Source: a virus
Direction: 5' to 3' (one strand)
Virus record (IMG/VR): IMGVR_UViG_3300035208_003482
DNA: 64,000 bases
The notes beneath the pieces are model-generated. The model was not told where the DNA came from, ran no database searches, and saw only the letters and a program-made list of their open reading frames with translations. Below are positions 6,522-53,520 of this stretch, piece by piece; the first letter of the stretch is position 1, and each line of letters begins with the position of its first letter. The translations under genes were made by a program, and so were the position numbers.

Positions 6522-7289
6522 TTAACCATCACCATTCAAGGTTAATGGGTTAAGCTCAACCGGTTTATCCGATTGAGGTATCACAATAGGATATGTAACA
6601 TCAATTTGCTTCTTCCCAGAATCGGGAGGAAAGCGTTTGAGTACATGTACCTGATAACTACCAGGCGCTAACGCTAGCATCCATCGACCTTTTGTATTTG
6701 TACGAGTTTGATTTATGAGAGATCCATTTTCATCTAACAACTCTACTGTTGCTAAATAGATAGGTGAGTCTTCTCTAACCAAATTCTGAGACACGGAACA
6801 CTTAGTACCTTTGGTCTTTGGACCTCTTTGACCACGAGAATTTCCACGAGAAGCTGCAGACTCTAACAAATCAATATCACTTTCACTTTTGACCATCTGT
6901 GTTGGACGAGGTAAAGCATCATTCGAGAACTGACTCGCAAAAGCCAACGCTTCTGCTTCATCGTCTGATTCAAAAGGATCGACAGGGTTAATATCATCCT
7001 CAACATTAAGCCCATGACTTGCTGCGGCTTCAGTAAACTTATTTGTCCGTGATCTGGATTCAAAGTTGTCCTTGTTTACAACAGATGGAACAACCGGTAC
7101 ATTTGTAGTTTGTTGTACCTGTTGTGATTGTGATTGAACAACTGTTCCAGAACTCAAAGAAGCATTAACTCTAGATAGTAAAATCTTGAGAAGGTTCTCT
7201 GAATTCTGGACACGCTTATCCAACGTACTCAATCGAGCTTCAATATCTAACAGAATATCTGTTGCCGATCTTTTATCGTCAGTTACCAT
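6522..7289 (-). CDS. Hypothetical protein (acidic middle, beta-rich C-terminus)
   Basis: ORF only. Confidence 0.3.
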   Translation of the reverse strand: MVTDDKRSATDILLDIEARLSTLDKRVQNSENLLKILLSRVNASLSSGTVVQSQSQQVQQTTNVPVVPSVVNKDNFESRSRTNKFTEAAASHGLNVEDDINPVDPFESDDEAEALAFASQFSNDALPRPTQMVKSESDIDLLESAASRGNSRGQRGPKTKGTKCSVSQNLVREDSPIYLATVELLDENGSLINQTRTNTKGRWMLALAPGSYQVHVLKRFPPDSGKKQIDVTYPIVIPQSDKPVELNPLTLNGDG

Positions 7290-8365
7290 TAATCATCCAA
7301 GATTACACCAAAATCAATTGGTATTCTCTTAATTAATTGAATATTCTCAACTGGAACATTGTTACCAAGAATGAGTTTAGTAAGTACTTCGCGAGCTTCT
7401 TTTGCAGAAGACAGTGTTACAAACAACTTGTCATCAATGAAAATGGCAAATTGCCCGGCAGCTAGAGCTGATGAAATCTTTACAGTTGCTTGAGGCTCCT
7501 CAGCCTCTTCGGATTTCTCTTCCGAAAGATCAGGAGGTTCACCCTCATAATCTTCGTGCATCTTTTCTTCATCTTCTTCGGAAGATGAAGTAAGTTCATA
7601 CTCTTTTGCTTCAAATTCAAGCTTTAACTGATCAATAACATCATTGACCAATTGACCAACTGCAACTCTTTCAGCAGATGGAATCTTGGAGAACTGTATA
7701 AGGATATCACTCAGGATACCGTTCTTACCAAGAACCCTAGATTTAAGATCGGCAAAATCATCTAACGAATCCATCACTGACAGTTCTTCAGTGACTTCGG
7801 TCAGCATAACTTGAAGTTGATGCTCTAGGTTTTTACGAACTGAACTTTCAAGATCCTTTAGTGGATTCATTCCCTGAAGTGTTTCAACATGGTTTTGAAC
7901 CGCATCACCATCTTCTTCAGAAACAGTCTCTGGCCAATTGTTATCAACCATTTGTGATTTTGAATTCTTTGTATCCGGTAAACCAGTTACTTCTTTCGTT
8001 GCCCAAGCCGTTTCTACCTGCCCAACAGATACGAAATTGTTCTTTGGCGGTATAAAACCATCATCACTAAAATTCTGCTGAGCAGATACTACTGGTATTC
8101 CTTTCTTAAGAACAAGGTTAGATGATTGTTTTTTGTTTGGATCTGATGCTTTAATAACAACAGGCTTATTAGAAACTTCTTTCATGATAGGAAAGTCCCC
8201 TTTATTAGTTGGTTGAGGTGCAACTTTAGGAAGTCCAAACTCATCATGAAGAAGTGACTTACCACCATCCTTTGGCTCATAGTCAAGCCTTTGGTATTCT
8301 GGTGGTTGGCGCTTTGCATCCAAAATGCGTCGAACTCTATTTCCTCGAAGATCTTCAGTCATCAA
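7289..8365 (-). CDS. Hypothetical acidic protein
   Basis: ORF. Stop/start overlap with its neighbours. Confidence 0.3.
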   Translation of the reverse strand: MMTEDLRGNRVRRILDAKRQPPEYQRLDYEPKDGGKSLLHDEFGLPKVAPQPTNKGDFPIMKEVSNKPVVIKASDPNKKQSSNLVLKKGIPVVSAQQNFSDDGFIPPKNNFVSVGQVETAWATKEVTGLPDTKNSKSQMVDNNWPETVSEEDGDAVQNHVETLQGMNPLKDLESSVRKNLEHQLQVMLTEVTEELSVMDSLDDFADLKSRVLGKNGILSDILIQFSKIPSAERVAVGQLVNDVIDQLKLEFEAKEYELTSSSEEDEEKMHEDYEGEPPDLSEEKSEEAEEPQATVKISSALAAGQFAIFIDDKLFVTLSSAKEAREVLTKLILGNNVPVENIQLIKRIPIDFGVILDD

Positions 8366-8687
8366 TTACCCCTGCAGATTTTTCTTCTTTGAGAATTCTC
8401 TTCTGAGCCTTCTGTTTTTGACTATGATCCCATTCGCCTGACTTCATCATTTGATCACGCCTCTCTGCCATTAAGCGCCTTGCAATTGCTTCTCTAGACT
8501 TACGCCTCTTCTTTATAGATGGCTTCTCATACGCTGAGCGTTCCTTTAACTGTCCAATAACTCTTTCACGTTGAAAGAGCGTCTTAAACCTTCGAGCAGC
8601 GTACTCGAAATCTTCACGAGAAGAGCCCTCAACAACAACTTCGATTGGTCTAACCCACGACTTATCAAACTCTTTTGGTGCAACCAT
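8355..8687 (-). CDS. rpsU: Ribosomal protein S21-like
   Basis: 'FEYAARRFKTLFQRERVIGQLKERSAYEKPSIKKRRKSREA' matches the bS21 core pattern (ALRRFKR...FYEKPS..RK). Extended basic C-terminus. Confidence 0.5.
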   Translation of the reverse strand: MVAPKEFDKSWVRPIEVVVEGSSREDFEYAARRFKTLFQRERVIGQLKERSAYEKPSIKKRRKSREAIARRLMAERRDQMMKSGEWDHSQKQKAQKRILKEEKSAGVIDD

Positions 8688-12378: not shown

Positions 12379-14652
12379 ATGCCTATTTATTTTTCGCCTC
12401 AAAAGGCCATGTCTCAATTAGTTCTGTCGAAAGACCAAGAAATTGCGTACAAAACCATTGCTAAATGGTTGGCAGATGGCGGTGTTGTTCACCCAAAACA
12501 GAAAGACCCTCAGCTATTAAGTCTTGGTGGTTATGCCGGCTCTGGAAAAGCGCTAGATATCAATACTCCTATACCAACTCCAAATGGTTGGACTATAATG
12601 GGAGAATTAAAAATTGGTGATGTAGTTTTCTCAGATGATGGAAAACCATGCTCAATCATTGCAATATCAGAGATTATGACTGGCCATGATTGTTTTGAAT
12701 TTGAATTTTCTGATGGAACAAAAGTCATTGCAGATTCAGATCATATTTGGAAAACTAAAAACTATAAAGAAAGAACTAAAAACAAACAACCAAAAGAAAG
12801 AATATCTAAAGAACTATTTAATACACAAAGAATAGGAAAACACAAACGTGTAAATCATTCTATTGATATTGTACCTGCTATAGAAATTGAAAGTAAAAAA
12901 CTTCCAATTGATCCATATTTACTTGGAGTTTGGCTTGGCGATGGCGCTAAATCTATGGCAAGAATATCAAGCATTGATAATGAAATTATAGATTCATTTA
13001 AACATGAATATAACATAAACAAAGTTGCTGGAGAAAATTGCGATTGGGGAATTAGTTCAAAAAATAATGGTCCATCATTAAAAGTTCAATTAAGAACATT
13101 GAATCTATTGTTTAATAAACATATTCCAACTATTTATTTGAGAAGTTCAAAAGAACAAAGAATGTCACTTCTTCGTGGTTTGATGGATACCGATGGAACT
13201 GTTTCTAAAGATACAGGAATACCATCATTTACCAATACAAATAAACAATTAGCTATTGATACTTTAGAACTAATTAGATCTCTTGGGTTTCATTCTAAAC
13301 TAACAACAGGCAAAGCTAAACTAAATGGTATTGTAACGTCTGATAAATATACCATACATTTCTCAGCAAATGAACCAGTTTTCAGGTTGTTAAGGAAAAA
13401 ACGCCTTCAAAAGATATTTAACTTTAGAGCAACATATGGAAGAAAATACATAACAAATGTACGTAAAATTGATTCTGTTCCAGTCAAATGTATAGCTGTT
13501 GACTCTTCTTCGAAAATGTATTTATGTTCTGATGGGTTTACTCCCACACATAATACAACACTCGTATCTACGATTGCTAAAGAGTTTGGATCAGCTATTC
13601 GCTTCGCTTTCTGCGCTTTGTCAGGAAGAGCTGCTAGTATTCTTGGTGTGAAGCTTCAAAATCAAGGTATTCGTTTCAAAGATGACGGACACTATTGTGG
13701 TACTATCCATCGACTGATTTATCGACCCATAGAAAATAGTGAAGGTGAAGTTATCTTCTGGGCAAAGAAAGAATCATTGGATTACGATGTTATCGTAATG
13801 GATGAAGCTTCCATGGTTTCGGAAGATATCTTTCGAGATCTTAAATCATACGGTATCGATATTTTGGCTGTTGGAGATCATGGTCAACTACCACCTATCG
13901 AAGGTAAATTCTCCTTGATGTCTGATCCTATCTTGAAGCTTGAAAAGATTCATCGACAAGCAGCTGATAATCCAATCATAAGTCTTTCGATGCACATTCG
14001 AGAGAGTGGTAGAATACCAAAAGATTATACCAACAACGATAAAGTTCAAATTGTTAAAAAGGGAGAATACATAGATTATCTGAAGGATATCTATTCCAAA
14101 AGTCAAGATCCTGAAAAGACAATTGATACAGCTGTTTTGTGTTACACAAACGCAACCAGATCCAAATTAAATATCATGATTCGTAATATGGTTTTTGGAA
14201 ATATATCTTCAATACCATTAGTTAATGATATTGTGATTTGTCTTAGAAACGCCGTCAATAACAGAAAAGTTCCTTTGTACAATGGGTTTAGAGGATATCT
14301 ATTAAATGGTGTTCAAGATGAAGGTGATTTCTATGAGGGTAATATTAGATTCCCTTATGAAGGATTTGATACCAATGTGAATAATTTATTGAAGTATCAA
14401 TTTGGATACAATAAAACATTTAGTTCATTTCAAGAACTTGAGAACTTTGGAATGGATGTAAAGCACTGGTCCGAGGTTGGTCTTTTATTTGATTACGGAT
14501 ATTCGATGACAGTTCATAAAGCACAAGGATCTCAGATGAGTAATGTTGTGCTGTTTAATGAACGCCCAGCTCCGGTATCGGACGACAACTACAAACGCTG
14601 GCTCTATACCGCGACCACCAGATCCTCGGACAAGCTAACAATTATTTTGTGA
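12379..14652 (+). CDS. SF1B DNA helicase (RecD/Dda/Pif1-like) with an intein inserted in Walker A
   Basis: Extein 'GYAGSGK|TTL' (P-loop), 'MDEASMV', 'VGDHGQLPPI', 'TVHKAQGSQ'. Confidence 0.75.
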   Translation: MPIYFSPQKAMSQLVLSKDQEIAYKTIAKWLADGGVVHPKQKDPQLLSLGGYAGSGKALDINTPIPTPNGWTIMGELKIGDVVFSDDGKPCSIIAISEIMTGHDCFEFEFSDGTKVIADSDHIWKTKNYKERTKNKQPKERISKELFNTQRIGKHKRVNHSIDIVPAIEIESKKLPIDPYLLGVWLGDGAKSMARISSIDNEIIDSFKHEYNINKVAGENCDWGISSKNNGPSLKVQLRTLNLLFNKHIPTIYLRSSKEQRMSLLRGLMDTDGTVSKDTGIPSFTNTNKQLAIDTLELIRSLGFHSKLTTGKAKLNGIVTSDKYTIHFSANEPVFRLLRKKRLQKIFNFRATYGRKYITNVRKIDSVPVKCIAVDSSSKMYLCSDGFTPTHNTTLVSTIAKEFGSAIRFAFCALSGRAASILGVKLQNQGIRFKDDGHYCGTIHRLIYRPIENSEGEVIFWAKKESLDYDVIVMDEASMVSEDIFRDLKSYGIDILAVGDHGQLPPIEGKFSLMSDPILKLEKIHRQAADNPIISLSMHIRESGRIPKDYTNNDKVQIVKKGEYIDYLKDIYSKSQDPEKTIDTAVLCYTNATRSKLNIMIRNMVFGNISSIPLVNDIVICLRNAVNNRKVPLYNGFRGYLLNGVQDEGDFYEGNIRFPYEGFDTNVNNLLKYQFGYNKTFSSFQELENFGMDVKHWSEVGLLFDYGYSMTVHKAQGSQMSNVVLFNERPAPVSDDNYKRWLYTATTRSSDKLTIIL
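12550..13554 (+). mobile_element. Intein (about 335 aa) with LAGLIDADG homing-endonuclease domain, inserted between K and T of the helicase P-loop
   Basis: Starts 'ALDINTPIPTPNGW' (block A with Ala1) and ends '...THN' + Thr(+1). LAGLIDADG motifs 'LLGVWLGDGA' and 'LLRGLMDTDGT'. The insert is markedly more AT-rich than the exteins. Confidence 0.7.
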
Positions 14653-15344: not shown

Positions 15345-15675
15345 TATTCACTTTATCCCAATCTGGAATTTCAACAGTTTGATTCATCATCGAATGAGAG
15401 CAGTCCCCAAGGTATTGTATAAAACCATCAGTTACAAATGAATGGCATCTGTGGTCCTTACCATCAGCCGGGTCTCCGTACTTTGCGGTAGCTAACATTG
15501 ATGGAGTAAATGTCGGTTTTTCAAAATCACCATTGAAAGACCAACCCGGAATATCATTCTTCATCTTCTTATAGAAGACATGTGCAAATCCCATATCTTC
15601 AGCATCACATGCTGGACATCGAATTGCATATCCAATAACCTCACCATCTTTATTAACCACCTCATGTACCTTCAT
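15337..15675 (-). CDS. Hypothetical protein
   Basis: ORF. 'CPAC' motif. Confidence 0.25.
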   Translation of the reverse strand: MKVHEVVNKDGEVIGYAIRCPACDAEDMGFAHVFYKKMKNDIPGWSFNGDFEKPTFTPSMLATAKYGDPADGKDHRCHSFVTDGFIQYLGDCSHSMMNQTVEIPDWDKVNNE

Positions 15676-16280
15676 TTAAGCTCCTCGAATAAATGATCAT
15701 CACCATTACAATGCTCTCTTAATCGTAAATACCAAGATTCACGCTTAAGCTTGAACATCAATATGGTGTTTCCTTTACCCTTGGTCTTACAAACGATACC
15801 CTCAGAACCCATACCTTCAAGAGTTCCGTTCCTTACAGAATCAAGTAGTGTATTGTTACAATTACCTTGATAAAGTAATGGAGCGTGGTTCATGTCACCA
15901 AAACTATCAAGAAATTCCCTTGGTGGAAGGATGCCTCGCTTATATGGATTAGCATCAATTAGATAAACATTATGGTCATCAGTTTCTATATGATTACCAA
16001 AAGATGAATTTGGTCCTGCAAATTCATAGAAAAGAATGATACTTTCCCATCTGTTCTTTTCACAGATCTTCGCTACCGTATCTTGCTGCTCTAGAATGAG
16101 TCCTTGAGCTTTAGAAAGAATTGGGTGCTCATCACTAAGCAAACGCTTGCGTGAACCAAACTTATAGAACCCGCGCTTCTTGCTCCATTCAGCTCTGATG
16201 TTTGAGCCGTCAATCTTATCAAAACCATAAATGGGAAGACCCATCTGAATTATAGATGAGATAGATGGATATGATTTCAT
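15672..16280 (-). CDS. ATP-dependent RNA ligase-like nucleotidyltransferase domain (Rnl2/small RNA-ligase type)
   Basis: Ligase motif I 'FDKIDGSN' (KxDG), motif III 'ILFYEFAGPNS', motif IV 'EGIVCK', motif V 'LMFKLK'. Confidence 0.5.
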   Translation of the reverse strand: MKSYPSISSIIQMGLPIYGFDKIDGSNIRAEWSKKRGFYKFGSRKRLLSDEHPILSKAQGLILEQQDTVAKICEKNRWESIILFYEFAGPNSSFGNHIETDDHNVYLIDANPYKRGILPPREFLDSFGDMNHAPLLYQGNCNNTLLDSVRNGTLEGMGSEGIVCKTKGKGNTILMFKLKRESWYLRLREHCNGDDHLFEELK

Positions 16281-38485: not shown

Positions 38486-39682
38486 ATGTCGTTCAAAGCG
38501 TTTCGATACAGAATCTATCCATCAAAAGAACAAGAAGCTTTTCTTGCTAAATCTTTTGGCTGCAATCGCTTTGTCTTTAATTTCTTCCTCAATAGAAGAA
38601 AACAAGAATATACTAATTCTAAAAACAACTTGAATTATTATGATCTTGCTAAAGAACTTACTCAACTAAAACAACGACAAGAATTTTCTTGGCTTAATGA
38701 TGTTAATTCTCAGATGTTGCAAAGCTCTCTTCGTAACATCGAAACTGCTTATACCAAATTCTTTACCAAACAGAATAAGTTTCCTAGATTCAAAAGCAAG
38801 AAGAATGAACAATGCTTTAAAATTCCACAAGCATTCTCTATAGAAGATGGTTTACTTTGGATACCTAAACTAAAATCCGGAATCAAAATTCGTCTTCATT
38901 CTCCTATTGGTGGTAAATTTGTATCTTGTTGTATTCGTAAAACTTGTTCTGGAAAGTATTATGCAAGTATTCAAACAGAACTTGAAATTGCTAAACTTCC
39001 ATTAAGTAATAATAAGGTTGGTTTAGATCTTGGAATCAAACATCTTATTACTGATTCAAATGGTAACAAGATTGATAATCTAAAAGCTTACAAATCCAAA
39101 CAAAAGAAATTAGCTTATAGAAGCAAACAACTGAGTAAGAAACAAAAAGGATCTTCAAATAGAAATAAAGCAAGAATATTGCTTGCTTTGATTCATGAAA
39201 AGATTTCAAACATAAGAAAAGATTACTTACACAAATTAAGTCATAAGATAGTTAGCGATAACCAAGTTATTATCTGTGAAGATTTAAGTGTAATCAAAAT
39301 GATGAAGAATCATAATCTTTCTAAGAGTATTGTAGATGCTTCTTGGGGAGAGTTGTTAAGGCAACTTGAATACAAATCAGAATGGTATGGAAGAACGTTT
39401 TATAAGATTGATAAATACTTTCCATCAAGTAAGATGTGTAATCAATGTAATTATGTTCTTCAAGATATGGAGCTTAAGGTTAGAGAATGGGAATGTCCAA
39501 AATGTCATGCAAAGCATGATAGGGACAAGAATGCAGCCAATAATATATTGGAACAAGGCTTAAAAGATTTGGGTTTATGGAACGTAATCCCAGAGAAGAA
39601 TTCTGAAAAGGATTCTTTGAAACAAAAACTTGGGGAGGCGCTATCAGTTGATAGGTCTGAGAACCAAGAAACTATTGCTTAA
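38486..39682 (+). CDS. tnpB: TnpB (IS200/IS605 OrfB-type RNA-guided endonuclease)
   Basis: 'MSFKAFRYRIYPS...FGCNRFVFN', 'DLGIKHL', 'ICEDLSV', 'CNQCN...CPKCHAKHDRDKNAANNI'. Confidence 0.8.
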   Translation: MSFKAFRYRIYPSKEQEAFLAKSFGCNRFVFNFFLNRRKQEYTNSKNNLNYYDLAKELTQLKQRQEFSWLNDVNSQMLQSSLRNIETAYTKFFTKQNKFPRFKSKKNEQCFKIPQAFSIEDGLLWIPKLKSGIKIRLHSPIGGKFVSCCIRKTCSGKYYASIQTELEIAKLPLSNNKVGLDLGIKHLITDSNGNKIDNLKAYKSKQKKLAYRSKQLSKKQKGSSNRNKARILLALIHEKISNIRKDYLHKLSHKIVSDNQVIICEDLSVIKMMKNHNLSKSIVDASWGELLRQLEYKSEWYGRTFYKIDKYFPSSKMCNQCNYVLQDMELKVREWECPKCHAKHDRDKNAANNILEQGLKDLGLWNVIPEKNSEKDSLKQKLGEALSVDRSENQETIA

Positions 39683-39718
39683 AGCATTGGTAGTTCACAC
39701 TGAAAATTGCCTACTTAC
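39520..39718 (+). ncRNA. Candidate omega-RNA for the second TnpB (scaffold ends 'GGTAGTTCAC' at 39689-39698; guide about 39699-39718)
   Basis: '...GCTTAAAGCATTGGTAGTTCAC|ACTGAAAATTGCCTACTTAC'. The guide overlaps the 3' end of the converging phosphatase gene. Boundaries are approximate. Confidence 0.4.
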
Positions 39719-40442
39719 GTTCAATCAATATCAAGTCAGTTAGAGACCCTTGTGATACAATTTGCCCGGTTAAAATGCCGGTATCGTAACATTTTGTATC
39801 AAGATTGCACGAATGTTTGTAGAATTTTGGAACCCCATCAGCCTGGGAATCATGTCCAGAGATGATGTATCCAAACCTGCCATCATACCGTTCGTGCCAC
39901 AGAGTGCCAGGCTTTTCGGCTTTGAGCTTTTTACAGCCATCTATTTCAGTCCAAACTAATGGAATGGGTCGATCTTTCTCGCCCAGCGTCCTAACATACA
40001 TCACCTCGGTATTGTTGGAGACATTACTCCAGGTATGTTTAGGGGTTACTCCGGCGTGAACTACGGTAATCCTATTGTTGTTTGAAAACACAAAACTGAG
40101 AATCAGAGGAAGTTGGGCGCACCACTCTAGCTCTGGACTCAGTTTCTTTTTGTCATCAGTGGTTCGTTTAATGATTCTTTGCTCATGGTTGCCTCGTACC
40201 ATGTAAGCCCAACCGTTTTCAACTAAACCACGAATTCTATTAATGATTCGCTCAGCTACATGATGTCCTTCCCCTTTGTCATAGACATCACCCAAGCAAA
40301 CCAAAATGCGCTTTGTACCAACCTCAGCGCGCTCTATAAGTTGTTCAAAATGCCATTCATTCTCGTGAATGTCACCAACAACAACTAGTTCTTGACTTTT
40401 CGGTATCTTAATTGTATGAATCATTACACCTATATATGCCAA
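39711..40442 (-). CDS. Metallophosphoesterase (PP2A-like Ser/Thr phosphatase)
   Basis: 'VVGDIHE', 'LGDVYDKG', 'RGNHE'. Confidence 0.6.
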   Translation of the reverse strand: MAYIGVMIHTIKIPKSQELVVVGDIHENEWHFEQLIERAEVGTKRILVCLGDVYDKGEGHHVAERIINRIRGLVENGWAYMVRGNHEQRIIKRTTDDKKKLSPELEWCAQLPLILSFVFSNNNRITVVHAGVTPKHTWSNVSNNTEVMYVRTLGEKDRPIPLVWTEIDGCKKLKAEKPGTLWHERYDGRFGYIISGHDSQADGVPKFYKHSCNLDTKCYDTGILTGQIVSQGSLTDLILIERK

Positions 40443-40454
40443 TATAATTAGGTG

Positions 40455-41024
40455 TCACCTTCCGTAACCAAGCCACTCAGTAAATTCAGCAGCTAATTTT
40501 TCATCAGCATTTGTCTTCTGAGCCCAAGAACCTGGATGGTTATCATACACTCCATAGAACATAGACATAGAGTGAAACATTTCATGAACAAATGTTACCA
40601 TAAACTCAGAGTCCCGAGCTGATGTAATGAAAGCCCAATGATCATTACGGGAAGTGTACCCAATAACCGCACCACCAACGAACCTGTTATTGAATCTGAA
40701 TTTCTCATCATTGAGACATCTGTAACAGGTAGCCTCAGGTAGAAACGAAATGTTCCAATCGAAAGTATTATAATGACTTACTCTTAGACCTTTAGCTTTA
40801 ATGTACTGAAAGAAGTTAGAGTAAGCATGAGTACACATATCATTGAGTTGAGCATAGTTCTGAGACGAACCACGTACCTCTCTAACCACCGCACCACAAT
40901 CCAGTGTCACTGGATTTCTAAGAAGTTCATTTTGGAGAGGTGTCGGATGCCCAACCATTCTGTCAGCTAGTGCTACATTGGTAATGAATAGAACTGAAAG
41001 AATAATTGAGAATAGACGGGACAT
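40455..41024 (-). CDS. Secreted HExxH zinc-metallopeptidase-like protein
   Basis: Signal peptide 'MSRLFSIILSVLFITNVALA'. 'VHEMFHSM' HExxH motif. Confidence 0.4.
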   Translation of the reverse strand: MSRLFSIILSVLFITNVALADRMVGHPTPLQNELLRNPVTLDCGAVVREVRGSSQNYAQLNDMCTHAYSNFFQYIKAKGLRVSHYNTFDWNISFLPEATCYRCLNDEKFRFNNRFVGGAVIGYTSRNDHWAFITSARDSEFMVTFVHEMFHSMSMFYGVYDNHPGSWAQKTNADEKLAAEFTEWLGYGR

Positions 41025-41027
41025 GGT

Positions 41028-41567
41028 TTACTCCGGTTCAGGATCTAGGAGCTTCTGTCGATTGTTTTCAATTGCTTGTTGCAATGCGGTCGCTGAATTG
41101 ATTTGGATGCCACCCTTCTCTTCTAGGTGTGCGCAGAAAGCGCACAGTCCAAAAAGAATCTCTCCCATTGCTTTATGAAGTTCTTCATGGCTTTCTCCGT
41201 CTGCTAGGTCTTCCAAAGAGTTTCTAATTCCTCGAATGATCTTTTTTCGATCTAGGTCAGAATAACTCTTAGCTACGGACTCAGCCTCATTCCAGATTGT
41301 CTCGAAGTGCATCCAACTTTCTCCCTGAGGATATCCTGAAGATGAAGCTTCGTCAAGAACTATTTTCTGTTCGACAACTTCATCTGCGGAATCTTCATCT
41401 TTCGGTTTTTCGTTTAAACCATATGGGTCTCGGCAGTATGGGCAGGTGTACTGAGTGTCGTCCGGCTGGCCATCCCAATCCGAGGTGTCGGGAAGCTCGT
41501 GCCGCCAGACCCAACCAGCACCACCACATACATTACAATCTTTATTCTCCATATTCCTTGACTGCAT
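41028..41567 (-). CDS. Hypothetical Cys-rich protein
   Basis: 'CNVCGGAG...CPYC'. Confidence 0.25.
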   Translation of the reverse strand: MQSRNMENKDCNVCGGAGWVWRHELPDTSDWDGQPDDTQYTCPYCRDPYGLNEKPKDEDSADEVVEQKIVLDEASSSGYPQGESWMHFETIWNEAESVAKSYSDLDRKKIIRGIRNSLEDLADGESHEELHKAMGEILFGLCAFCAHLEEKGGIQINSATALQQAIENNRQKLLDPEPE

Positions 41568-42231
41568 TGACTATATCAGCAAGTGGAGCCATTGCTCCCT
41601 TACCAAGTACTCCGCAAGCAAGTTTGGATTCTACTGGCTCAACGATGCATAATCTTTGTGTGAAAATCACTGGTTTCTCTCTAACAGAGTTACCAATAGT
41701 TATAGGTTGGTAATCTATAGATTCATATGATTTCTGTGGACCTGATAACTCTTCGTCTTTTTTAGCTAGTCTTGAGAATGAATGACGCGTCCTAAGCTCT
41801 TTCAAATGTTTATCGGTCAAAGGATTGTTCAACATATCTGTATTCATTGCAGGGGCCACAACGATGTTTTTATCACTTGGCCATGCATAGTACAAAGATG
41901 TTAGGAGATTATCACAGATTCCAACAGCCATCTTTGTAAGAGTGTTTGCTGAAAGTGGAGCGATTACCAAGACATCGGCCCAGTCTTTAAGGTCGATATG
42001 AAGAACTTGGTCACCGATTTTCTTCCAAGACCACTCATTAGAATCACTATACACCTCTCCACTAGAAGCTATATGGAGTAAGTCTTTGTTCTCAGCTAGA
42101 GCTGTGGATGCGAAGTACGCGCCCTTGTCTGTTAAGATTCCTTTAACGGTACCAACATCTTGAAGAGCTTTGAACAAGCGCCAGTATTTGATTGCAGCAA
42201 CACTTCCAGTTCCTGCCAGAAGAATATTCAT
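41542..42231 (-). CDS. coaC: Phosphopantothenoylcysteine decarboxylase-like flavoprotein (CoaC domain)
   Basis: 'ILLAGTGSVAAIK', 'VLVIAPLSANTLTKMAVGICDNLLT', 'PAMNTDMLNNP'. Confidence 0.65.
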   Translation of the reverse strand: MNILLAGTGSVAAIKYWRLFKALQDVGTVKGILTDKGAYFASTALAENKDLLHIASSGEVYSDSNEWSWKKIGDQVLHIDLKDWADVLVIAPLSANTLTKMAVGICDNLLTSLYYAWPSDKNIVVAPAMNTDMLNNPLTDKHLKELRTRHSFSRLAKKDEELSGPQKSYESIDYQPITIGNSVREKPVIFTQRLCIVEPVESKLACGVLGKGAMAPLADIVNAVKEYGE

Positions 42232-42237
42232 ATACCC

Positions 42238-42486
42238 TCATTTAAACAGTGTTACGTATATCCCAGCCAGTAATGTTAGTACCTGAAAAACAGCCGGAAC
42301 TTTAACATTACCTGAATTGACATCTCTATGTTCAACTGAAATGTTACCAATAATAGCTCCAATACCAAATATAAAGCTTGTAAAGAACCACGATCTGTGA
42401 GTGTTAAAACGCATCAGGAATACAACGTTCATCACCTGAATACTTACAGACCACACGAAAGCCAGTATCAATTGTAGATGCTTCAT
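42238..42486 (-). CDS. Small membrane protein (2 TM helices)
   Basis: Hydrophobic segments. Confidence 0.3.
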   Translation of the reverse strand: MKHLQLILAFVWSVSIQVMNVVFLMRFNTHRSWFFTSFIFGIGAIIGNISVEHRDVNSGNVKVPAVFQVLTLLAGIYVTLFK

Positions 42487-42511
42487 TGTTCCTCAAAAGC
42501 CACATAGAAAA

Positions 42512-42973
42512 ATGGCCCATAGTATCCGTCTGTTAATAAATAGATTGTATGATGCTAAAATCAGAAAGATAAATGATTATCAGCATAAAGTCTCGAAGAG
42601 ACTTGGTTCAACATATGATACAATCTATGCAGAAGATCTTTCTGTCAAAACAATGTCAGAAAGTAAGTTCAAGAACCTAAATAAAGCATTACGAAATGCT
42701 AAACTGTCGCAATTCTTATTATTCTTAGGATATAAGAGTAAGAAATTAGTACTAGTAAATCCAAAGAATACATCAAAAACATGTAATACATGTGGAAAGG
42801 TACATGATATAAAGTTATCAGATAGGATAATATCGTGTAGTTGTGGGAGTGTATATGATAGAGATGAGAATGCGGCAAGAAATATTTATTGCTTGGGACA
42901 AGCTATTGAGGATAATCCTCAATATGTTGGATCGTTAACGATCCAAGAAGCCCTTGCCTTTAGGCATGGGTAG
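42512..42973 (+). pseudogene. N-terminally truncated TnpB remnant (RuvC-II, Zn finger and RuvC-III only) retaining the conserved 3' end and omega-RNA terminus
   Basis: 'YAEDLSVK', 'CNTCGK...CSCGSVYDRDENAARNI'. Lacks the RuvC-I Asp and the N-terminal half. Ends 'GGGTAGTTCAC' at 42969-42978. Confidence 0.6.
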
Positions 42974-43094
42974 TTCACTATAGTCTAGGTACCTAACTTT
43001 GGATGCATGTTCTCCAGAAAGAATATATGTTCTACCAAAGTAAGTACCTACACCAGATGGTACGTCTTCTATAAACGTAAACAGATTTGGCTGC

Positions 43095-43820
43095 TTACGA
43101 TTTAGTGACGGTTTTAGATCTATCATACTTCTCTTGGACAAGCTTCAAAAGATTAGCTGGAAGGTCGGCTCTTGTAGATTCAACAAGCAACCCATCGCCA
43201 CAGATGTACATGTTAGGACTTGGTTGGTTGAAATCATCCAACACATTAGCTACGATGAAGTCAGCGGAAGATACAGTACGAGACTTCCGAGCAATCTCTA
43301 GAAGCTCTTCTTTGGTAATTCCAACCTGAAGTTTAAACTTGACTAATACTCCATTGAAACCCCAAGGCTCTCGGATATAGTCAACAAGCTTCGGAGTCTG
43401 AATGCATTTGATGTAGATCTCTGGATATTCAGATGAAACCTTTGCAGCCTTAATAGAATGCAAACCTTTGTTGTAATAATCGTGAGGTTCGGGAGCGAGA
43501 ACATCCACTGGTCTATAATCGCTCACAGCTGCTGAATGAATGATGACATCATAGTTACCAGAAGTAATTTCTTCTTTCATTCTGGCTTCTAGTTCATCAA
43601 ACGTTTTGTACGTAATAAGATTAAGCTTACGCTCCCTATCAATCATACTAGGCGCTTGAAGCATTTCGTTCGAGCTTGGGTTACCAATGAGTGTAACTTC
43701 ATTGTCCTGTGCCGCTTCCCAAGCAATGGATGTTCCAGTTTTACCCTTGAAGATGTTCGAGATTGTACGAACATGATCGATAGGCATCTGCGTTGAACCT
43801 GCTGTTACTAGGATTTTCAT
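43095..43820 (-). CDS. coaB: Phosphopantothenate-cysteine ligase-like (CoaB domain)
   Basis: 'KILVTAGSTQMPIDHVRTISNIFKGKTG' resembles the CoaB 'VTAGPTxEPIDPVRxISNxSSGKMG' signature. Confidence 0.6.
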   Translation of the reverse strand: MKILVTAGSTQMPIDHVRTISNIFKGKTGTSIAWEAAQDNEVTLIGNPSSNEMLQAPSMIDRERKLNLITYKTFDELEARMKEEITSGNYDVIIHSAAVSDYRPVDVLAPEPHDYYNKGLHSIKAAKVSSEYPEIYIKCIQTPKLVDYIREPWGFNGVLVKFKLQVGITKEELLEIARKSRTVSSADFIVANVLDDFNQPSPNMYICGDGLLVESTRADLPANLLKLVQEKYDRSKTVTKS

Positions 43821-43828
43821 AATAACCT

Positions 43829-44293
43829 TTATTGATTACCCTGTGTCATTTTAATTTTCTCTAACAACTCTTCCACCGCGTAATACTCTGGCGAAATGAG
43901 GTGCGTTATTCCGTTGAACAAAAACATACCAGAACCAATTAAACATCCGGAAATCATAAATATTGATAAAAGTGTAAGACCACCATCACAAGGATCTCGA
44001 AATTTACCATCGTAACAATATGGCTTGACCAAAAGTTTGAAGTAAAACCATAGTATGATTAGGAGCGCTACACCGGCAATAGAGTAGAAAATCCCTTCAG
44101 CGATTTGCTGACGAACCAAACATTTCCAGGCATATAGCCCAATAGTTTTTAGTTCCGCTGCAATCTGCGGGGCGATAGTATCAACTCGCTTGATAAATTC
44201 AGTAGCAAACTTTTCAGCATCGGTAATGAGACGATCCATACCATTACCAAACTTATCGACAACGTTATTTACTACAGCTGCTGTTTCAGACAT
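43829..44293 (-). CDS. Membrane protein
   Basis: Multiple hydrophobic helices. Confidence 0.3.
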   Translation of the reverse strand: MSETAAVVNNVVDKFGNGMDRLITDAEKFATEFIKRVDTIAPQIAAELKTIGLYAWKCLVRQQIAEGIFYSIAGVALLIILWFYFKLLVKPYCYDGKFRDPCDGGLTLLSIFMISGCLIGSGMFLFNGITHLISPEYYAVEELLEKIKMTQGNQ

Positions 44294-44302: not shown

Positions 44303-44584
44303 TTATCTAATTCTCTTAGCAAATTCTTGTTTGAACAGTCTCAAGAACTCTGGTTGTTCACCAGTTCTCTCTAACATCTTGATGATATTATACATGTGAT
44401 TGTCAGTTATCTTAGACAATGGAATACATCGGCCTTCGGCGGTACGCCAAACAATCTCACCGATAAGTTTGTGATAGCACCATTGCTGAAGTATTCCAAG
44501 ATATCTAATCATGAAATACCCAAGACGCTGAGTTCTGTTTAGTGAACTCCAATCTTCTTTGGTAACCGCTTGTTTAGTATTCAT
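44303..44584 (-). CDS. Hypothetical protein
   Basis: ORF. Confidence 0.25.
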   Translation of the reverse strand: MNTKQAVTKEDWSSLNRTQRLGYFMIRYLGILQQWCYHKLIGEIVWRTAEGRCIPLSKITDNHMYNIIKMLERTGEQPEFLRLFKQEFAKRIR

Positions 44585-45306
44585 AGTTTGATCATTTCTG
44601 TTGTCCAGTCACCGCCACTACACGCTGGGCCATCTTTGGATTTTATCTTCCAAGCTCGCTCGTCATTTATAAGCATTGCGGTTGATCTTGTTTCCCACCT
44701 ATGTTCGCTGTCATGAACACAAACAGAATCCTCAGAACCAATTCCGCAGTCATGTGAACTCATAAGTTTCAACAATGTGTTTGGATTAACCGGCTGAGAA
44801 AAGTCTTTAATCTGTGCAAGAAGATTCTTGCGAATAAAGGTGTCTCTTGGAACTTTCTGGTTGAATCCAATACCAGTTGAGATATGAACTCCAGCCTTTA
44901 GTTTTGTGACAATCAACTCCTTATTATCACAACTAAGATTGTACAAATCATTTGCAGTTCCAGCAACCATATTAAATGGTTTATGCTCCCTAGCATCTAG
45001 TCCTGCCCAATACTCAACAACATCAATGATGTTTGTCTTCTTTAAAGACTCAAGAACCAAATGACCACGAGATTTAAGACCTCTTCCATGGAAGTTCTCA
45101 TCTAAATCCCAGTTGGTAATCGCACAAAAGATACCAGAGGTATTAGCTCCAATCCATGTTCCACCCAGAACATCCAATGGACAGTAAATAGAACTCTGCC
45201 TAATACTCCAAGGAGTACTAGGACGAGTTGGATTCTCATCCCTATTGGATGCAATTACCAAAGGTGTTTTTGTTTTTGGATAGAATGCTACAACCAAAGT
45301 ACACAT
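44581..45306 (-). CDS. NRDE/TANGO2-family (Ntn-hydrolase-like) protein
   Basis: N-terminal 'MCTLVVAF...IASNRDE'. Met-Cys start typical of the family. Confidence 0.45.
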   Translation of the reverse strand: MCTLVVAFYPKTKTPLVIASNRDENPTRPSTPWSIRQSSIYCPLDVLGGTWIGANTSGIFCAITNWDLDENFHGRGLKSRGHLVLESLKKTNIIDVVEYWAGLDAREHKPFNMVAGTANDLYNLSCDNKELIVTKLKAGVHISTGIGFNQKVPRDTFIRKNLLAQIKDFSQPVNPNTLLKLMSSHDCGIGSEDSVCVHDSEHRWETRSTAMLINDERAWKIKSKDGPACSGGDWTTEMIKL

Positions 45307-46059: not shown

Positions 46060-46509
46060 CTATAATCTATAGATTGGAGGATCTGCTCGCTCCCATTTAA
46101 TCTCCTGCTCACCTTTGTAATAGACCAGCTTGCCATCTTCGAATCCCCACTTCTCATATGACGCTCCGTCATAGATTGTTTCAAAGATGATGAACGATCC
46201 ATTTTCGACGTAAGGGGCTAGCTTCTGGAAGAATTCAAACTCTACTCCATCAACCCAGCCCTCACACTCTCTGTTGATTTTAGTAATCCCATCTTGGCGA
46301 GAAGCAAGAGCCCTCCAACCAATATTACTAACAACTTCTTTAATTGAGTCATCGTTTGGATAATGCTCAATAAGAAACTTGTCAACATTCTCTCTGGTGA
46401 CTTTGAACGTTCCGGATGTGTTGATACTATCTACGCCCATGTTATTACCCCTTAACGCAAACGATCTGTCGAAGCTCGTGTTGAATTTCAACAAGATCCT
46501 TTTGAGCAT
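46060..46509 (-). CDS. Hypothetical protein
   Basis: ORF. Confidence 0.25.
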   Translation of the reverse strand: MLKRILLKFNTSFDRSFALRGNNMGVDSINTSGTFKVTRENVDKFLIEHYPNDDSIKEVVSNIGWRALASRQDGITKINRECEGWVDGVEFEFFQKLAPYVENGSFIIFETIYDGASYEKWGFEDGKLVYYKGEQEIKWERADPPIYRL

Positions 46510-47686
46510 TCATTACGTCTTCGATATTTTTGTAAGCACCTGGAGTCTCATCAAGGACAGAAGAATCTTTCTTACACTCAATACCTTCCGTTGCTTTGAT
46601 ATGATCTTCAACAGTAAATGTTTTCATAGCTTGGGTTCTGCTCATCTTTCTACCAGCACCATGTGATGCAGATTTGTAAGCATCTTCATTACCCAAACCT
46701 TTAACAATATATGTCTTTGCACCCATGCTCCCAGGAATTATAGCGAGCCTGCCAAGGTCAGCATTAATTGCTCCCTTTCTAGTAATTAGAACATTTCTAC
46801 CAAAATGGTTTTCATAAGCAATATAGTTATGATGACAGCTAATTGTTTGAACATCACGTTCAAACTTCGGAACTAACTTACTCTTCTTAAGAGCTTTTAA
46901 ACCAAAGTCTCTCATTAACTCCCTGTTAATTTGAGCATATCTTTGCGCCCATTTGATACCTTGCATATAATCATTGAAGGCATCTGTTCCCTTTGGAAGA
47001 AAGGCCAGATCAACATCTGGTAATTCTATAAACCATCTTTTCATCTCACTTTTTGCTAAGTCAATGAAATATTGTCCGATTTTATTTCCAGGTCCACGGG
47101 ATCCTGAATGTAGAGATATCCCAACTCTATTAAGATCATCCACTACAATTTCATAGTAGTGATTATTACTTCCGAGTGTTCCTAACTGACTTATCGGATT
47201 TTTATGAGCAAGTTTTGGATGCTTCTTAACTAGGTCTTTGTATCCTGGTTCTAGTTCTTCCCAAGCAATACAAACCTCTGTTGGGATATTTCTCCAAGAA
47301 CCTTTGTCATTTTCTTCTTTTGGATAAAATCCATGAGGAATTGCATCCTCTAAAGCTTCCCTAATGGAAAGTAAATCTTTTGGTAGCATATCATATTTTA
47401 AAGTTGTCAATTCATAATCACACCCGCATCCAATGTCTACCCCGCAAGCTGCCGGAATTATTGCGTTTATTGTCGGAATTACAGATCCTATTGTTGCACC
47501 AATACCACAATGAGCATCAGGCATAACAGCAAGTCCATGAGGATCTATAAATGGAAGATTTGCAACATTATGAAGTTGCATTTCCGCTTGTTGTTCAATT
47601 TCAACTCCAAGCGTCCAACGTTTAATTGGTACCTTGGCACCGATTTGTTTTTCGATATTTCCATCTCTATAAACGTGATAGTTCAT
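46445..47686 (-). CDS. rtcB: RtcB-family RNA ligase (3'-phosphate/5'-OH RNA-splicing ligase)
   Basis: 'MPDAHCGIGATIGSVIPT', 'CGVDIGCGCD', 'HSGSRGPGNKIG', 'CHHNY', 'SHGAGR'. Confidence 0.85.
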   Translation of the reverse strand: MNYHVYRDGNIEKQIGAKVPIKRWTLGVEIEQQAEMQLHNVANLPFIDPHGLAVMPDAHCGIGATIGSVIPTINAIIPAACGVDIGCGCDYELTTLKYDMLPKDLLSIREALEDAIPHGFYPKEENDKGSWRNIPTEVCIAWEELEPGYKDLVKKHPKLAHKNPISQLGTLGSNNHYYEIVVDDLNRVGISLHSGSRGPGNKIGQYFIDLAKSEMKRWFIELPDVDLAFLPKGTDAFNDYMQGIKWAQRYAQINRELMRDFGLKALKKSKLVPKFERDVQTISCHHNYIAYENHFGRNVLITRKGAINADLGRLAIIPGSMGAKTYIVKGLGNEDAYKSASHGAGRKMSRTQAMKTFTVEDHIKATEGIECKKDSSVLDETPGAYKNIEDVMNAQKDLVEIQHELRQIVCVKG

Positions 47687-49543: not shown

Positions 49544-49957
49544 TTAATATGGTTGAATATTTTCCAAGTCTGTAATTGGCTCTCTTTCATTTGAAAGCCG
49601 CTCGATAACTTCGATTAGATCTTGTTGTCCATTCTTAACTGCTCGCTCTATACATTCTTCTTTGGGTGTAAAGAATTCAATATATTTACACAACCATAAT
49701 TCTGACTTCCATTCTTTACGTCTAGATTTTGTTAAACAAGTTGAGTCAAGAATAACAGTATCATGTCCCGCATAAAATAATGCCCTTATCATTACCTTAG
49801 CAGTTAGGATAATAAAAGGCTCCATTACTTGGTTTCGTTTATCTCCATGTAATGCTAGCCTAATACTATCAAGAGATACAATTGGAAGACCCTGTGTTTT
49901 AGTCCAAGTGGATTTACCAGAACGAGGTAAACCAACTGTCATTATTAGAGTTTTCAT
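49544..49957 (-). CDS. P-loop kinase (polynucleotide kinase-like kinase domain)
   Basis: 'TVGLPRSGKSTW' Walker A. About 137 aa. Confidence 0.4.
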   Translation of the reverse strand: MKTLIMTVGLPRSGKSTWTKTQGLPIVSLDSIRLALHGDKRNQVMEPFIILTAKVMIRALFYAGHDTVILDSTCLTKSRRKEWKSELWLCKYIEFFTPKEECIERAVKNGQQDLIEVIERLSNEREPITDLENIQPY

Positions 49958-51316: not shown

Positions 51317-51790
51317 TCAAGCGCTTGTGCTAATTGCAAAATGAATCTGCTTCGCTATGATTTGTTTAGCCTTTTTAATGTGCTCTTCTAACAGACCAGT
51401 CTCGAAACTTGTCTTAACAAGCATGTCTTGAACTGTACTCATGTCATCGTCATCATCGAGGATTACAAAAGCATCAACATGAATCTGTCTAAGCCAAAGT
51501 TCGATCTCATCTCCTCTTTGGCCTTTTGTTTCAGAAGACGTTGCACCAATAATACGCTCAGGGTATTTGAACCCAACCTTCTCAAGTGCATTTTGTAGCC
51601 AGAATATTGGATGACCAATACGCCAAGAAGAAGAAATCACAACACTAGCATTGGTTTCTTCTAGTAGTTTATTGAGAATCTGTACACGCTCAGGATCAAT
51701 TTCCAATCCAGGATTCTTTAGAAGAAAACTCTGACTATTCAGAACGCCATCTATATCTAAAAAACAAATAATAGTTTTTACGTTTAACAT
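51317..51790 (-). CDS. HAD-superfamily phosphatase (Pnk 3'-phosphatase-like)
   Basis: 'ICFLDIDGVLN' DxDG motif I. Small size typical of Pnk-type phosphatases. Confidence 0.45.
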   Translation of the reverse strand: MLNVKTIICFLDIDGVLNSQSFLLKNPGLEIDPERVQILNKLLEETNASVVISSSWRIGHPIFWLQNALEKVGFKYPERIIGATSSETKGQRGDEIELWLRQIHVDAFVILDDDDDMSTVQDMLVKTSFETGLLEEHIKKAKQIIAKQIHFAISTSA

Positions 51791-52336: not shown

Positions 52337-52679
52337 TATCTTTCTTATTGGGCTTGATAAGCCCTAAAAGCTTCTGTAACGATTCAGGATCAACACTTCC
52401 AATAACATCCCCATTGGGATATATTAGCCTAATATTTATAGGTATTTCATCTTTAGAGACACCACCATTTCTTCCAACTTTGATTTTGTAACCCTTGATA
52501 TGACCATCTCGGATTAGTTCTGACATCTCTTTTGAAAAACGATACTTCTCAATATCCGTCTTCAATCTTTGATTGAAAGAATTATAGATGGTTGCTTTTG
52601 GGATTGTTAATCCGTCTACACAAACATCTTGTAGAACATTCTTTAATATCTCAATGTGATCCTTTAAGTGTGTCATCAT
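52326..52679 (-). CDS. Hypothetical protein
   Basis: ORF. Confidence 0.25.
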   Translation of the reverse strand: MMTHLKDHIEILKNVLQDVCVDGLTIPKATIYNSFNQRLKTDIEKYRFSKEMSELIRDGHIKGYKIKVGRNGGVSKDEIPINIRLIYPNGDVIGSVDPESLQKLLGLIKPNKKDNGT

Positions 52680-53520
52680 AATCGCGTTCCGGTCGAAAGA
52701 TATCTGACCCAGTAGTAATGATTGTATTCAACCATTCCTTTGAATCGTTAAACAAAGGAACACTGAAGTCAGAGATCCATTTATGTCGAGTTACTTGTCC
52801 TTGTGCTGTTGGATAGAAAGCTGGAGCAAGATAGGTTGCTGAACCATGACGAAATGCGCTGGGCAAGGAATCGAATTCAAACCCGGCCTCATCTAGGATT
52901 TGTCTTCTATCATTCATATCCTTATCTTCTAGTATTGAATATGTCTGATTTCCATAACGGTTCCAAAGAACAGATCTAACGGCTTCATCTACAGCATTTT
53001 GAATACATCTAAACTGTCTGTAAAGTAGATAGTTAATTGTCTCCTTAATTGATGGTACACCAAATGCGTGAGCTGAAAATGTGACAGAGCCATCTAAGTC
53101 TGGTGGGTTATTCATTTCCCACATATGAGTCATGAATTCATATGTTGCCATTGACGCGGCTGACGAAGACATCTTTTGAGTGTTGTTTCCAAACCATGGC
53201 GTCTCATCTGCAGAACGATCATTTCGAAGAACTAAAATGATCTTATCACTGTACTGGTAACCAAATATTACACCATCTATTTGTTTAGCTAAAGATACCA
53301 TAGTACTGTTAAATAGTAACATAGTTCTCTGACAGAATGGTTTTGGTATGTTTTTAGTTACACGAGTGAAAGACCTTCCATCTATTTTTATGATGACAGG
53401 AATTCTACTAATGATTGTTTGGTTGTAAGAACTCTCGTAAGCTAACTGTCTGTGTTGTAACGATTGAGCCATGTTTCTCCATGACTCCAAATCCAAATGG
53501 AACGTAGGAGCCTTACGCAT
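52651..53520 (-). CDS. Thg1-like protein (tRNA 3'-5' nucleotidyltransferase family)
   Basis: 'VIIKIDGRSFTRVTKNIPKPFCQRTMLLFNSTMVSLAKQIDGVIFGYQYSDKIILVL' parallels the Thg1 core '...VRLDGRNFHRF...KPND...AYGQSDEYSFVF'. Confidence 0.55.
   Translation of the reverse strand: MRKAPTFHLDLESWRNMAQSLQHRQLAYESSYNQTIISRIPVIIKIDGRSFTRVTKNIPKPFCQRTMLLFNSTMVSLAKQIDGVIFGYQYSDKIILVLRNDRSADETPWFGNNTQKMSSSAASMATYEFMTHMWEMNNPPDLDGSVTFSAHAFGVPSIKETINYLLYRQFRCIQNAVDEAVRSVLWNRYGNQTYSILEDKDMNDRRQILDEAGFEFDSLPSAFRHGSATYLAPAFYPTAQGQVTRHKWISDFSVPLFNDSKEWLNTIITTGSDIFRPERDYDDTLKGSH

Follow-up and report, generated by a model that had tools for sequence, protein, structure and literature searches.

Why would a virus carry genes for coenzyme A (CoA) biosynthesis? 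The question is raised by a 64,000-nucleotide stretch of viral DNA (IMG/VR record IMGVR_UViG_3300035208_003482; the window, in what follows), in which a first-pass annotation had picked out a CoaB-like and a CoaC-like gene, i.e. a phosphopantothenoylcysteine synthetase (PPCS) and decarboxylase (PPCDC), as unusual auxiliary metabolic genes for a virus. Both open reading frames (ORFs; CoaB at 43095..43820, CoaC at 41542..42231) lie on the minus strand at these coordinates, and the peptides quoted for them are present. The profile searches proposed at that time place both far above the Pfam gathering scores: E=4.8e-25 and 88.9 bits for CoaB against DFP (PF04127, cut-off 22), and E=1.2e-26 and 93.6 bits for CoaC against Flavoprotein (PF02441, cut-off 22.7). 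Their rarity in viruses agrees with the literature, in which, within incomplete coverage, no paper on phage PPCS or PPCDC was found.

The likely answer is that a huge phage carries a three-gene CoA module, TANGO2-CoaB-CoaC, acting at the CoaBC step. Family identity, catalytic-residue conservation, protein folds and the conservation of the cluster and its fusions are directly observed; enzymatic activity, an advantage for the phage and what TANGO2 catalyzes are inferred. Of greatest value is the conserved module together with its fusions. As far as found, the module and its fusion forms are new, and phage PPCS and PPCDC are undescribed.

The TANGO2-CoaB-CoaC module

The first gene of the module (44581..45306, minus strand) encodes a 241-residue TANGO2-family protein, putatively an Ntn (N-terminal nucleophile) hydrolase by type. 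It matches PF05742 with E=6.7e-23 and 82.6 bits (cut-off 22.6) over profile positions 1-224 of 257 and, among PDB sequences, the human TANGO2 structures 8sv7 and 9bwa with E=4.7e-5 over residues 11-116. The N-terminus reads MCTL (MCTLVV...), and the motifs SNRDEN and GGTWIG are present; six phage homologues show no variation at C2, at N21 R22 D23 E24 or in GGTWIG. Human TANGO2 shares the N-terminal Met-Cys nucleophile, NRDE and GGTW(I/L)G. It differs in its low pairwise similarity, and the window gene is viral, stands in an operon with CoaB and CoaC and lacks a mitochondrial targeting context.

Two ORFs, both on the minus strand, separate TANGO2 from CoaB in the window. The first (93 residues, 44303..44584) begins within a 4-base overlap with the TANGO2 stop and is lineage-specific filler, with homologues solely in the window's own contig copies and no Pfam match recorded. 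The second (154 residues, 43829..44293) is a predicted membrane protein (phrog_1486 'membrane protein', 9.8e-15); it has a 155-residue counterpart in locus L003, a 76%-identical relative, and is missing from the compact operons L004, L011 and L028.

Between CoaB and CoaC, which are transcribed in that order, the first-pass annotation had placed a membrane ORF and a TnpB remnant, and both are there. The former is an 82-residue hydrophobic, lineage-specific ORF just upstream of CoaC (42238..42486, minus strand), without a Pfam or PHROG match and with a homologue solely in the window's own contig. The latter is a 153-residue C-terminal fragment of a decayed TnpB (IS605 OrfB / Cas12f-like; 42512..42973, plus strand), which matches Cas12f1-like_TNB at 6.4e-16 and OrfB_IS605 at profile positions 74-119 alone. 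The window's two full-length TnpB genes (IS605 OrfB / Cas12f-like; 2431..3576, minus strand, and 38486..39682, plus strand) are just 33-36% identical to the fragment, which is thus an old, independent, decayed insertion and not a recent copy. L003 has no TnpB between CoaB and CoaC, and the fragment is also missing in L004, L011 and L028, whose CoaB and CoaC genes overlap. The TnpB fragment and the membrane ORF are local, lineage-specific insertions. A once-compact operon in the window lineage has probably been loosened by small ORFs and a now-decayed TnpB element.

The compact form is seen in L004, where TANGO2 (7236-7997), CoaB (8001-8708) and CoaC (8705-9382) follow one another with no intervening gene. 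TANGO2 lies directly upstream of CoaB in L003, L004, L011, L013, L016 and L028. A pattern-based scan of IMG/VR with a TANGO2 alignment detected four TANGO2 loci, each with CoaB and CoaC downstream. TANGO2 belongs to the window's CoA module as its third member, outside the coordinates annotated earlier. In L005 (a 437,772-bp contig, by its size presumably a huge phage), the 223-residue ORF upstream of CoaB is not recognizable as TANGO2; an R2K ATP-grasp gene (6467..7240) stands two genes upstream of CoaB, in the place that TANGO2 takes in other phages, and a homologous R2K-clade ATP-grasp is present in the window (59732..60487, minus strand).

Separate CoaB and CoaC genes in reversed order had been taken as an oddity of this virus. 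This part of the annotation does not hold, and the arrangement is instead standard for the monofunctional subfamily. Of 14 distinct related loci, 13 have a separate CoaC behind CoaB and on its strand, with stop and start codons that mostly overlap or abut. Among the 13 is a Patescibacteria chromosome (L007), where the neighbors are type IV secretion system pilins, SpoIID and polysaccharide-synthesis genes. The same order occurs in the cellular operon L028 and in Firmicute-type records, and CoaB and CoaC homologues of 45-88% identity occur together on the same contigs.

Linkage of TANGO2 to CoaBC extends to cells. The same scan, applied to one genome per prokaryotic species, yielded 67 cellular TANGO2 loci; CoaB/C is adjacent or fused in six of them, and in one more CoaB lies at a distance of 3 kb. 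By a rough estimate, given one coaBC locus per few thousand genes, chance would produce well under one such adjacency. In L028, a high-GC cellular contig of 1.5 Mb, TANGO2, CoaB and CoaC overlap stop-to-start. TANGO2 abuts an ordinary fused CoaBC in L034, L047 and L049; two of these are Neomarinimicrobiota genomes, and one is from an unclassified bacterium related to them. Two independent archaeal assemblies (L041, L050) hold a single continuous ORF of about 650 residues, TANGO2-CoaC-CoaB, with the Pfam domains TANGO2 (residues 8-210), Flavoprotein (280-432) and DFP (446-618).

The archaeal fusion, used as a query against a collection of 5.8 billion proteins, retrieved 43 clusters with all three domains, with identity down to 44% and on contigs of up to 292 kb. 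Public databases label these archaeal proteins just 'bifunctional CoaBC'. Among triple fusions of at least 600 residues, 34 of 42 begin with MC(T/N)L, and the remainder look N-terminally truncated; the NRDE motif reads NRYA in most archaeal triple fusions. An exhaustive search with the window TANGO2 returned further architectures, namely TANGO2-CoaB (P0434, 488 residues) and TANGO2-NUDIX-AMP-binding (P0445, 1396 residues). The NUDIX and AMP-binding families of P0445 include CoA pyrophosphatases and acyl-CoA synthetases.

One protein listed as Flavoprotein plus TANGO2 was not used as fusion evidence (P0181, 288 residues; L008 and L009, short metagenome contigs). It joins the N-terminal half of TANGO2 to a Flavoprotein domain minus its first ~11 residues, and is most simply a deletion chimera that has lost CoaB together with the second half of TANGO2 and the beginning of CoaC.

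In a rough neighbor-joining tree, CoaBC-linked TANGO2 proteins fall into at least three separate clades. The first holds the phages, sister to a group with L028, P0434 and Patescibacteria-type proteins; the second holds Marinimicrobia; the third holds the archaeal fusions, with unlinked Bathyarchaeia proteins as their sister group. That three architectures occur in three clades speaks for repeated selection of the TANGO2-CoaBC linkage and not for one inherited block.

This distribution bears directly on the alternative that TANGO2 is a coincidental or unrelated neighbor (e.g. in heme trafficking or general lipid binding), its linkage being an inherited gene block. Several points weigh on that side and against a role at the CoaBC step. 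The phage block is also syntenic with unrelated genes, and most cellular TANGO2 genes lie away from CoaBC, with about 10% of the sampled loci linked to it. About 30% (PVC group, Bacteroidota) lie beside DinB, GNAT and DoxX genes: over the 67 loci, DinB_2 recurs in 20, a ~360-residue unannotated protein without a Pfam match in 19, a DoxX_2 membrane protein in nine and a GNAT Acetyltransf_5 N-acyltransferase in eight, these being four recurrent clusters picked by eye for annotation from a noisy neighbor clustering (antisense ORFs, high-GC genomes). This second neighborhood includes L054, L055, L060, L063, L064, L066, L072, L078-L080, L083-L085, L088 and L091, and the substrates of the family may comprise more than one thiol or acyl compound. 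A bacterial homologue, Shewanella HtpA, has been assigned to heme trafficking (PMC10470608).

Set against coincidence are the linkage in at least three distant clades and three architectures, the covalent fusions conserved down to 44% identity, the TANGO2-NUDIX-AMP-binding fusion, and the IMG/VR loci, where TANGO2 is found solely beside CoaB-CoaC. Eukaryotic data also tie TANGO2 to CoA: acyl-CoA binding by the human protein depends on NRDE (PMC11867700), and loss of TANGO2 is rescued by vitamin B5 in fly and cell models (bioRxiv 10.1101/2022.11.04.514597). The heme role is disputed for animals (PMC12782551). A coincidental neighbor appears unlikely.

The question has clinical weight, as the molecular function of TANGO2 is debated (heme transport, acyl-CoA binding or an unspecified hydrolase). 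Loss of TANGO2 in humans leads to a severe metabolic disorder. The human protein has an Ntn-hydrolase fold with Cys2 as presumed nucleophile, and CoA has been docked with its pantothenate amide near Cys2 (PMC12359130). A review has speculated on CoA salvage (PMC11179719). No paper was found with both TANGO2 and CoaBC, or on TANGO2 neighborhoods or fusions with CoA genes, within a literature coverage that is incomplete and leaves room for prior notice.

Judged from sequence and gene context, TANGO2 probably functions at the phosphopantothenate-to-phosphopantetheine step of CoA metabolism, and the TANGO2-like protein of the phage would work at or beside the CoaBC step. That the family as a whole consists of CoA-metabolism enzymes acting directly with PPCS and PPCDC is a more tentative proposition, nearly balanced and leaning slightly towards doubt. 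The favored guess is a Cys-nucleophile amidase that would turn damaged or spent pantetheine-type compounds back into 4'-phosphopantothenate, or would supply cysteine. For example, TANGO2 might remove the damaged or used-up cysteamine end of (phospho)pantetheine-type compounds, which CoaB and CoaC would then rebuild with fresh cysteine; alternatively, it might hand cysteine to CoaB, as an Ntn-type amidotransferase domain hands over ammonia. A third option is an acyl-CoA thioesterase or transferase.

If a direct role beside PPCS and PPCDC is true, the phage and Marinimicrobia operons and the archaeal fusions would form a prokaryotic 'Rosetta stone' for the human disease gene TANGO2, and the vitamin B5 rescue of its deficiency would be explained. 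The recurrent operon and fusions in phages, bacteria and archaea point TANGO2 to one defined CoA step. Its function becomes directly testable with prokaryotic proteins that are small and tractable, among them an enzyme with three naturally joined domains.

Probable phage origin of the window

The window is very probably of phage origin, on indirect support from its relatives and gene content. Its syntenic relatives comprise viral contigs in IMG/VR (124-458 kb) and contigs from metagenomes (about 440-450 kb); the size of 435-458 kb seen in part of the relatives is typical of huge phages. A CoaC homologue named 'uncultured Caudovirales phage' (P0218) lies on a 447-kb contig, and the best match of the window's PcfJ-like protein is the 595-kb phage LR756511. 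Coding is dense and nearly unidirectional, and more than half of the ORFs are without a family. The window itself belongs to an ENA metagenome contig with a length of 76.6 kb.

An alternative reading takes the contig for a small cellular genome (e.g. Patescibacteria) or another mobile element, in which the CoA genes would be housekeeping genes. It draws on the content of the 64 kb, where genes for capsid, portal, tail and terminase are not recognizable, and on the absence of any DNA-level match of the region to deposited phages. In addition, the closest named CoaB homologues and the closest cellular branch to the phage TANGO2 proteins are of Patescibacteria type; the sequences suggest a divergent CoaB subfamily common to Patescibacteria and huge phages. 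PHROGs hold no family for the window's CoaB-like, CoaC-like and TANGO2-like proteins, and an 814-residue conserved ORFan is without a match in deposited phages. Against a cellular or other mobile origin stand the syntenic viral contigs, the relatives of huge-phage size, the P0218 name and the LR756511 match, together with phage-like content (Apyc1, a tRNA-repair set, homing endonucleases, ribosomal protein S21 and an aminoacyl-tRNA synthetase fragment). A non-phage contig is distinctly improbable.

Database records named as phage require caution here. Of the 'phage' records that tblastn matched to CoaB, CoaC or topoisomerase, most are short pieces without annotation or shotgun records resembling host DNA, and such host-like records (Listeria, Salmonella and Staphylococcus types) were excluded from the phage evidence. 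They include OR848490, OR847036, AGRM01000003, AFYI01000003 and OR844988, and they inflate counts of CoaBC in phages.

CoaB and CoaC as predicted enzymes

The CoaB-like protein (241 residues) starts MKILVTAGSTQMPIDHVRTISNIFKGKTG and is a putative monofunctional phosphopantothenate-cysteine ligase. Its top NCBIfam matches are PRK06732 and coaB_strep. Among PDB sequences, its best solved relative is the stand-alone enzyme of Streptococcus pneumoniae (2gk4, 4e-18, end-to-end), with E. coli CoaB at 6e-8. N22 aligns to the residue that is changed in 1u7u, the N210D structure of the E. coli enzyme, and K127 to the last Lys of the E. coli KIKK; we take these residues to be the counterparts of E. coli N210 (ISN motif) and K289, required in the two half-reactions. 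All 40 homologues retain N22, K127, AAVSDY and the motif GxTxxxIDxVR. The structural model has a predicted local distance difference test (pLDDT) score of 92.2, and all 50 listed Foldseek PDB matches are PPCS proteins (bacteria, yeast, human).

Streptococcus and Enterococcus CoaB (2gk4; PRK06732, TIGR02114) is the nearest known counterpart. The two share a stand-alone length of ~230-240 residues, an alignment over 2gk4 residues 4-228 (Foldseek 2e-16), the GxTxxxID-VR-ISN motif, AAVSDY and the Lys, and a gene just upstream of a separate coaC. They differ in sequence (~28% identity), and the window CoaB is phage-borne with a TANGO2 gene ahead of it. Bifunctional CoaBC (Dfp) of E. coli and Mycobacterium shares both chemistries and folds. 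In contrast to the window's two genes, CoaB then CoaC, Dfp is one polypeptide with CoaC N-terminal and CoaB C-terminal, and its sequence similarity to the window proteins is low (E about 1e-5 to 1e-8).

The CoaC-like protein (229 residues), a HAL3-like flavoprotein, contains GSVAAIK, PLSANTLTKMAVGICDNLLT and PAMN. Searched against all PDB sequences, it matches best Arabidopsis AtHAL3a (6.4e-40) and human PPCDC (6.7e-30). Two alignments, one of 9 and one of 36 sequences, with AtHAL3a and tobacco HAL3 among them, show no variation at H78, N130 (PAMN) and C206, and C206, within KLACGVLGKGAMA (KLACG), is aligned to RLACGDYGNGAMA. The AtHAL3a counterparts of the three residues are presumably His90, Asn142 and Cys175 (numbering partly from the 1mvl/1mvn C175S entries). 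In AtHAL3a, Cys175 is the clamp Cys that reduces the enethiol intermediate. The active-site check suggested earlier, Cys and His in CoaC (C206, H78) and Lys and Asn in CoaB (K127, N22), finds all four conserved.

The AlphaFold model of CoaC has a pLDDT of 94, and neither it nor the CoaB model has a segment below 50. Its top Foldseek match is 1mvn (AtHAL3a with reaction intermediate; TM-score 0.88, root-mean-square deviation 2.2 A), and its best PDB structural matches are AtHAL3a, Cryptococcus HAL3 and human PPCDC. AtHAL3a (1e20/1mvn) and human PPCDC (1qzu) share 37-41% core identity with the window protein and the catalytic His, Asn (PAMN) and Cys (ACG). Unlike the window CoaC, which sits in a prokaryotic-virus context, they lack a 47-residue insertion and have Trp where it has Leu. 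The insertion (residues 147-193, about 41653..41793) is clade-specific, separates the PAMN helix from the Cys clamp and is modeled confidently as an ordered beta hairpin. Its length differs among relatives, being nil in Patescibacteria and plant proteins and shorter in P0128.

A different proposal gives the pair another substrate than phosphopantothenate and no relation to CoA: a ligase and a lantibiotic-type cysteine decarboxylase would, for example, modify a peptide (aminovinyl-cysteine type) or make a different thiol compound. Both proteins score far below NCBIfam equivalog cut-offs: CoaB reaches 114.4 bits against 265 for PRK06732 and 103.5 against 217.2 for TIGR02114, and CoaC reaches 104 against 219.7 for TIGR00521 and 98.2 against 261.4 for TIGR02113. 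Scores this low place CoaB and CoaC both in a divergent subfamily. TIGR02113 and TIGR00521 describe the streptococcal and fused bacterial forms, and the NCBIfam library has no eukaryote-type PPCDC model; because the window CoaC is nearer to the eukaryote-type enzymes, its shortfall weakens the call only slightly. The same proposal can point to the insertion, which lies near the substrate clamp, to Leu134, which stands for the Trp of PAMNxxMW found in over 90% of relatives, and to lantibiotic decarboxylases (LanD), which have the same fold.

LanD-type enzymes (EpiD, MrsD, SpaF, TvaF, CypD) share with CoaC the fold of the homo-oligomeric flavin-containing Cys decarboxylases (HFCD) and the active-site His, but they rank far lower. 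EpiD (4.5e-9) and MrsD (2.6e-6) are much weaker matches in the PDB sequence search, and the E-values of LanD-type enzymes against the CoaC model are 8-10 orders of magnitude worse than that of the top structural match. Over sequence and structure together, PPCDCs lead EpiD, MrsD, SpaF and TvaF by 7-30 orders of magnitude, and a LanD identity was rejected on this ranking. Grouping with lantibiotic enzymes had been named in advance as grounds for rejecting the CoaC assignment; the protein sides with AtHAL3a and human PPCDC. The PPCDC-type Cys, which to our knowledge LanD enzymes lack, is invariant here, and the partner protein, a PPCS, has both the Asn and the Lys that acyl-cytidylate chemistry requires. 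The window has no genes for ribosomally synthesized and post-translationally modified peptides nearby, i.e. no precursor-peptide or lanthionine-synthetase gene, and cellular TANGO2 is joined to ordinary fused CoaBC in the Marinimicrobia operons and archaeal fusions. A substrate outside CoA metabolism is very unlikely.

The view that the genes are decaying passengers, their operon broken by an insertion sequence and the pair no longer functional, can cite the opposite-strand TnpB remnant and small ORFs that interrupt the module and the Leu at a near-invariant Trp position, but it is scarcely credible in the face of three full-length ORFs with every catalytic residue, identical or 98% identical copies in separate samples, models confident throughout and a TnpB that is itself the decayed element. 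Proteins identical or nearly identical to the window's recur in independent samples (P0001, 100%; P0121, 98%; the window CoaB, identical in a second sample), alongside hundreds of homologues. The TnpB fragment, lying on the opposite strand, may still uncouple transcription of CoaC from that of CoaB, a further point against a joint module. Also on that side, the 64 kb show no further CoA-pathway gene. A scan for promoters and terminators gave fewer promoter-like sites than shuffled sequence and zero terminator-like sites on the minus strand, a result that fits co-transcription and its absence equally well.

It is sound to regard the pair as CoaB-type and CoaC-type enzymes with intact catalytic residues and, by homology, presumptive activity. 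CoaB would activate host 4'-phosphopantothenate with a nucleotide (CTP by bacterial analogy) and ligate cysteine to it; the flavoprotein CoaC would decarboxylate the product to 4'-phosphopantetheine. Host PPAT and DPCK would finish CoA, and 4'-phosphopantetheine would also feed holo-carrier proteins. By this route the phage would maintain or boost flux through the CoaBC step during infection, and the manipulation of host CoA pools suggested in the first-pass annotation is plausible.

Conservation of PPCS and PPCDC over many huge-phage contigs suggests that the supply of 4'-phosphopantetheine or CoA is limiting in infection or, alternatively, in the hosts of these viruses, which are possibly metabolically reduced. 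Phage NAD+ reconstitution pathways, in an auxiliary or counter-defense role, are another case of a phage-carried short stretch of a host cofactor pathway; the likeness to the window module is one of functional analogy, not of membership. We know of no defense system that depletes CoA.

Other genes of the window

Three minus-strand genes lie 3' of CoaC (39711..41567) and encode a 179-residue Cys-rich protein, a 189-residue secreted HExxH protein and a 243-residue calcineurin-like phosphoesterase. The last matches Pfam Metallophos at 1.7e-13; the other two are without a Pfam match. Homologues of the three follow CoaC in L003, L004 and L011, and partly in L016. They are not found beside the cellular TANGO2-CoaBC loci, so that this synteny is limited to the phage clade, and there is no evidence that places them in the CoA module.

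The window also encodes ClpP, HU, a DksA-type zinc-finger protein, topoisomerase IA and an NAD-dependent ligase, three different TnpBs and several LAGLIDADG endonucleases; its homing endonucleases are of both the free-standing and the intein kind. A Dda-like SF1 helicase (12379..14652, plus strand) carries an intein (Hom_end, LAGLIDADG_3; residues 249-344). PHROG 'terminase large subunit' matches to this gene cover its intein-bearing N-terminal part (residues ~48-404) and so do not count as evidence for a terminase. An 864-residue protein (22144..24738, minus strand) matches two vault domains, the Major Vault Protein shoulder at 5e-28 and the vault repeat at 2.9e-9; it is odd for a phage and has no PHROG family.

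Translation and RNA repair are represented by several genes, all on the minus strand. Ribosomal protein S21 (about 8355..8687) lies next to a protein with the PheRS N-terminal domain only (7289..8365), both single copies of translation-related genes typical of huge phages. The tRNA/RNA-repair genes are dispersed and comprise RtcB (46445..47686), a Thg1-like guanylyltransferase (52651..53520), an RNA ligase (15672..16280), an HAD_SAK_2 phosphatase (51317..51790) and a small AAA_33 kinase (49544..49957). In every syntenic relative among the phages, RtcB stands upstream of TANGO2, with a few genes between. An anti-Pycsar Apyc1-type metallo-beta-lactamase (62585..63451), a NADAR-domain protein (32294..33172) and an inosine-uridine nucleoside hydrolase (34361..35260), also on the minus strand, likely serve counter-defense or nucleotide salvage.

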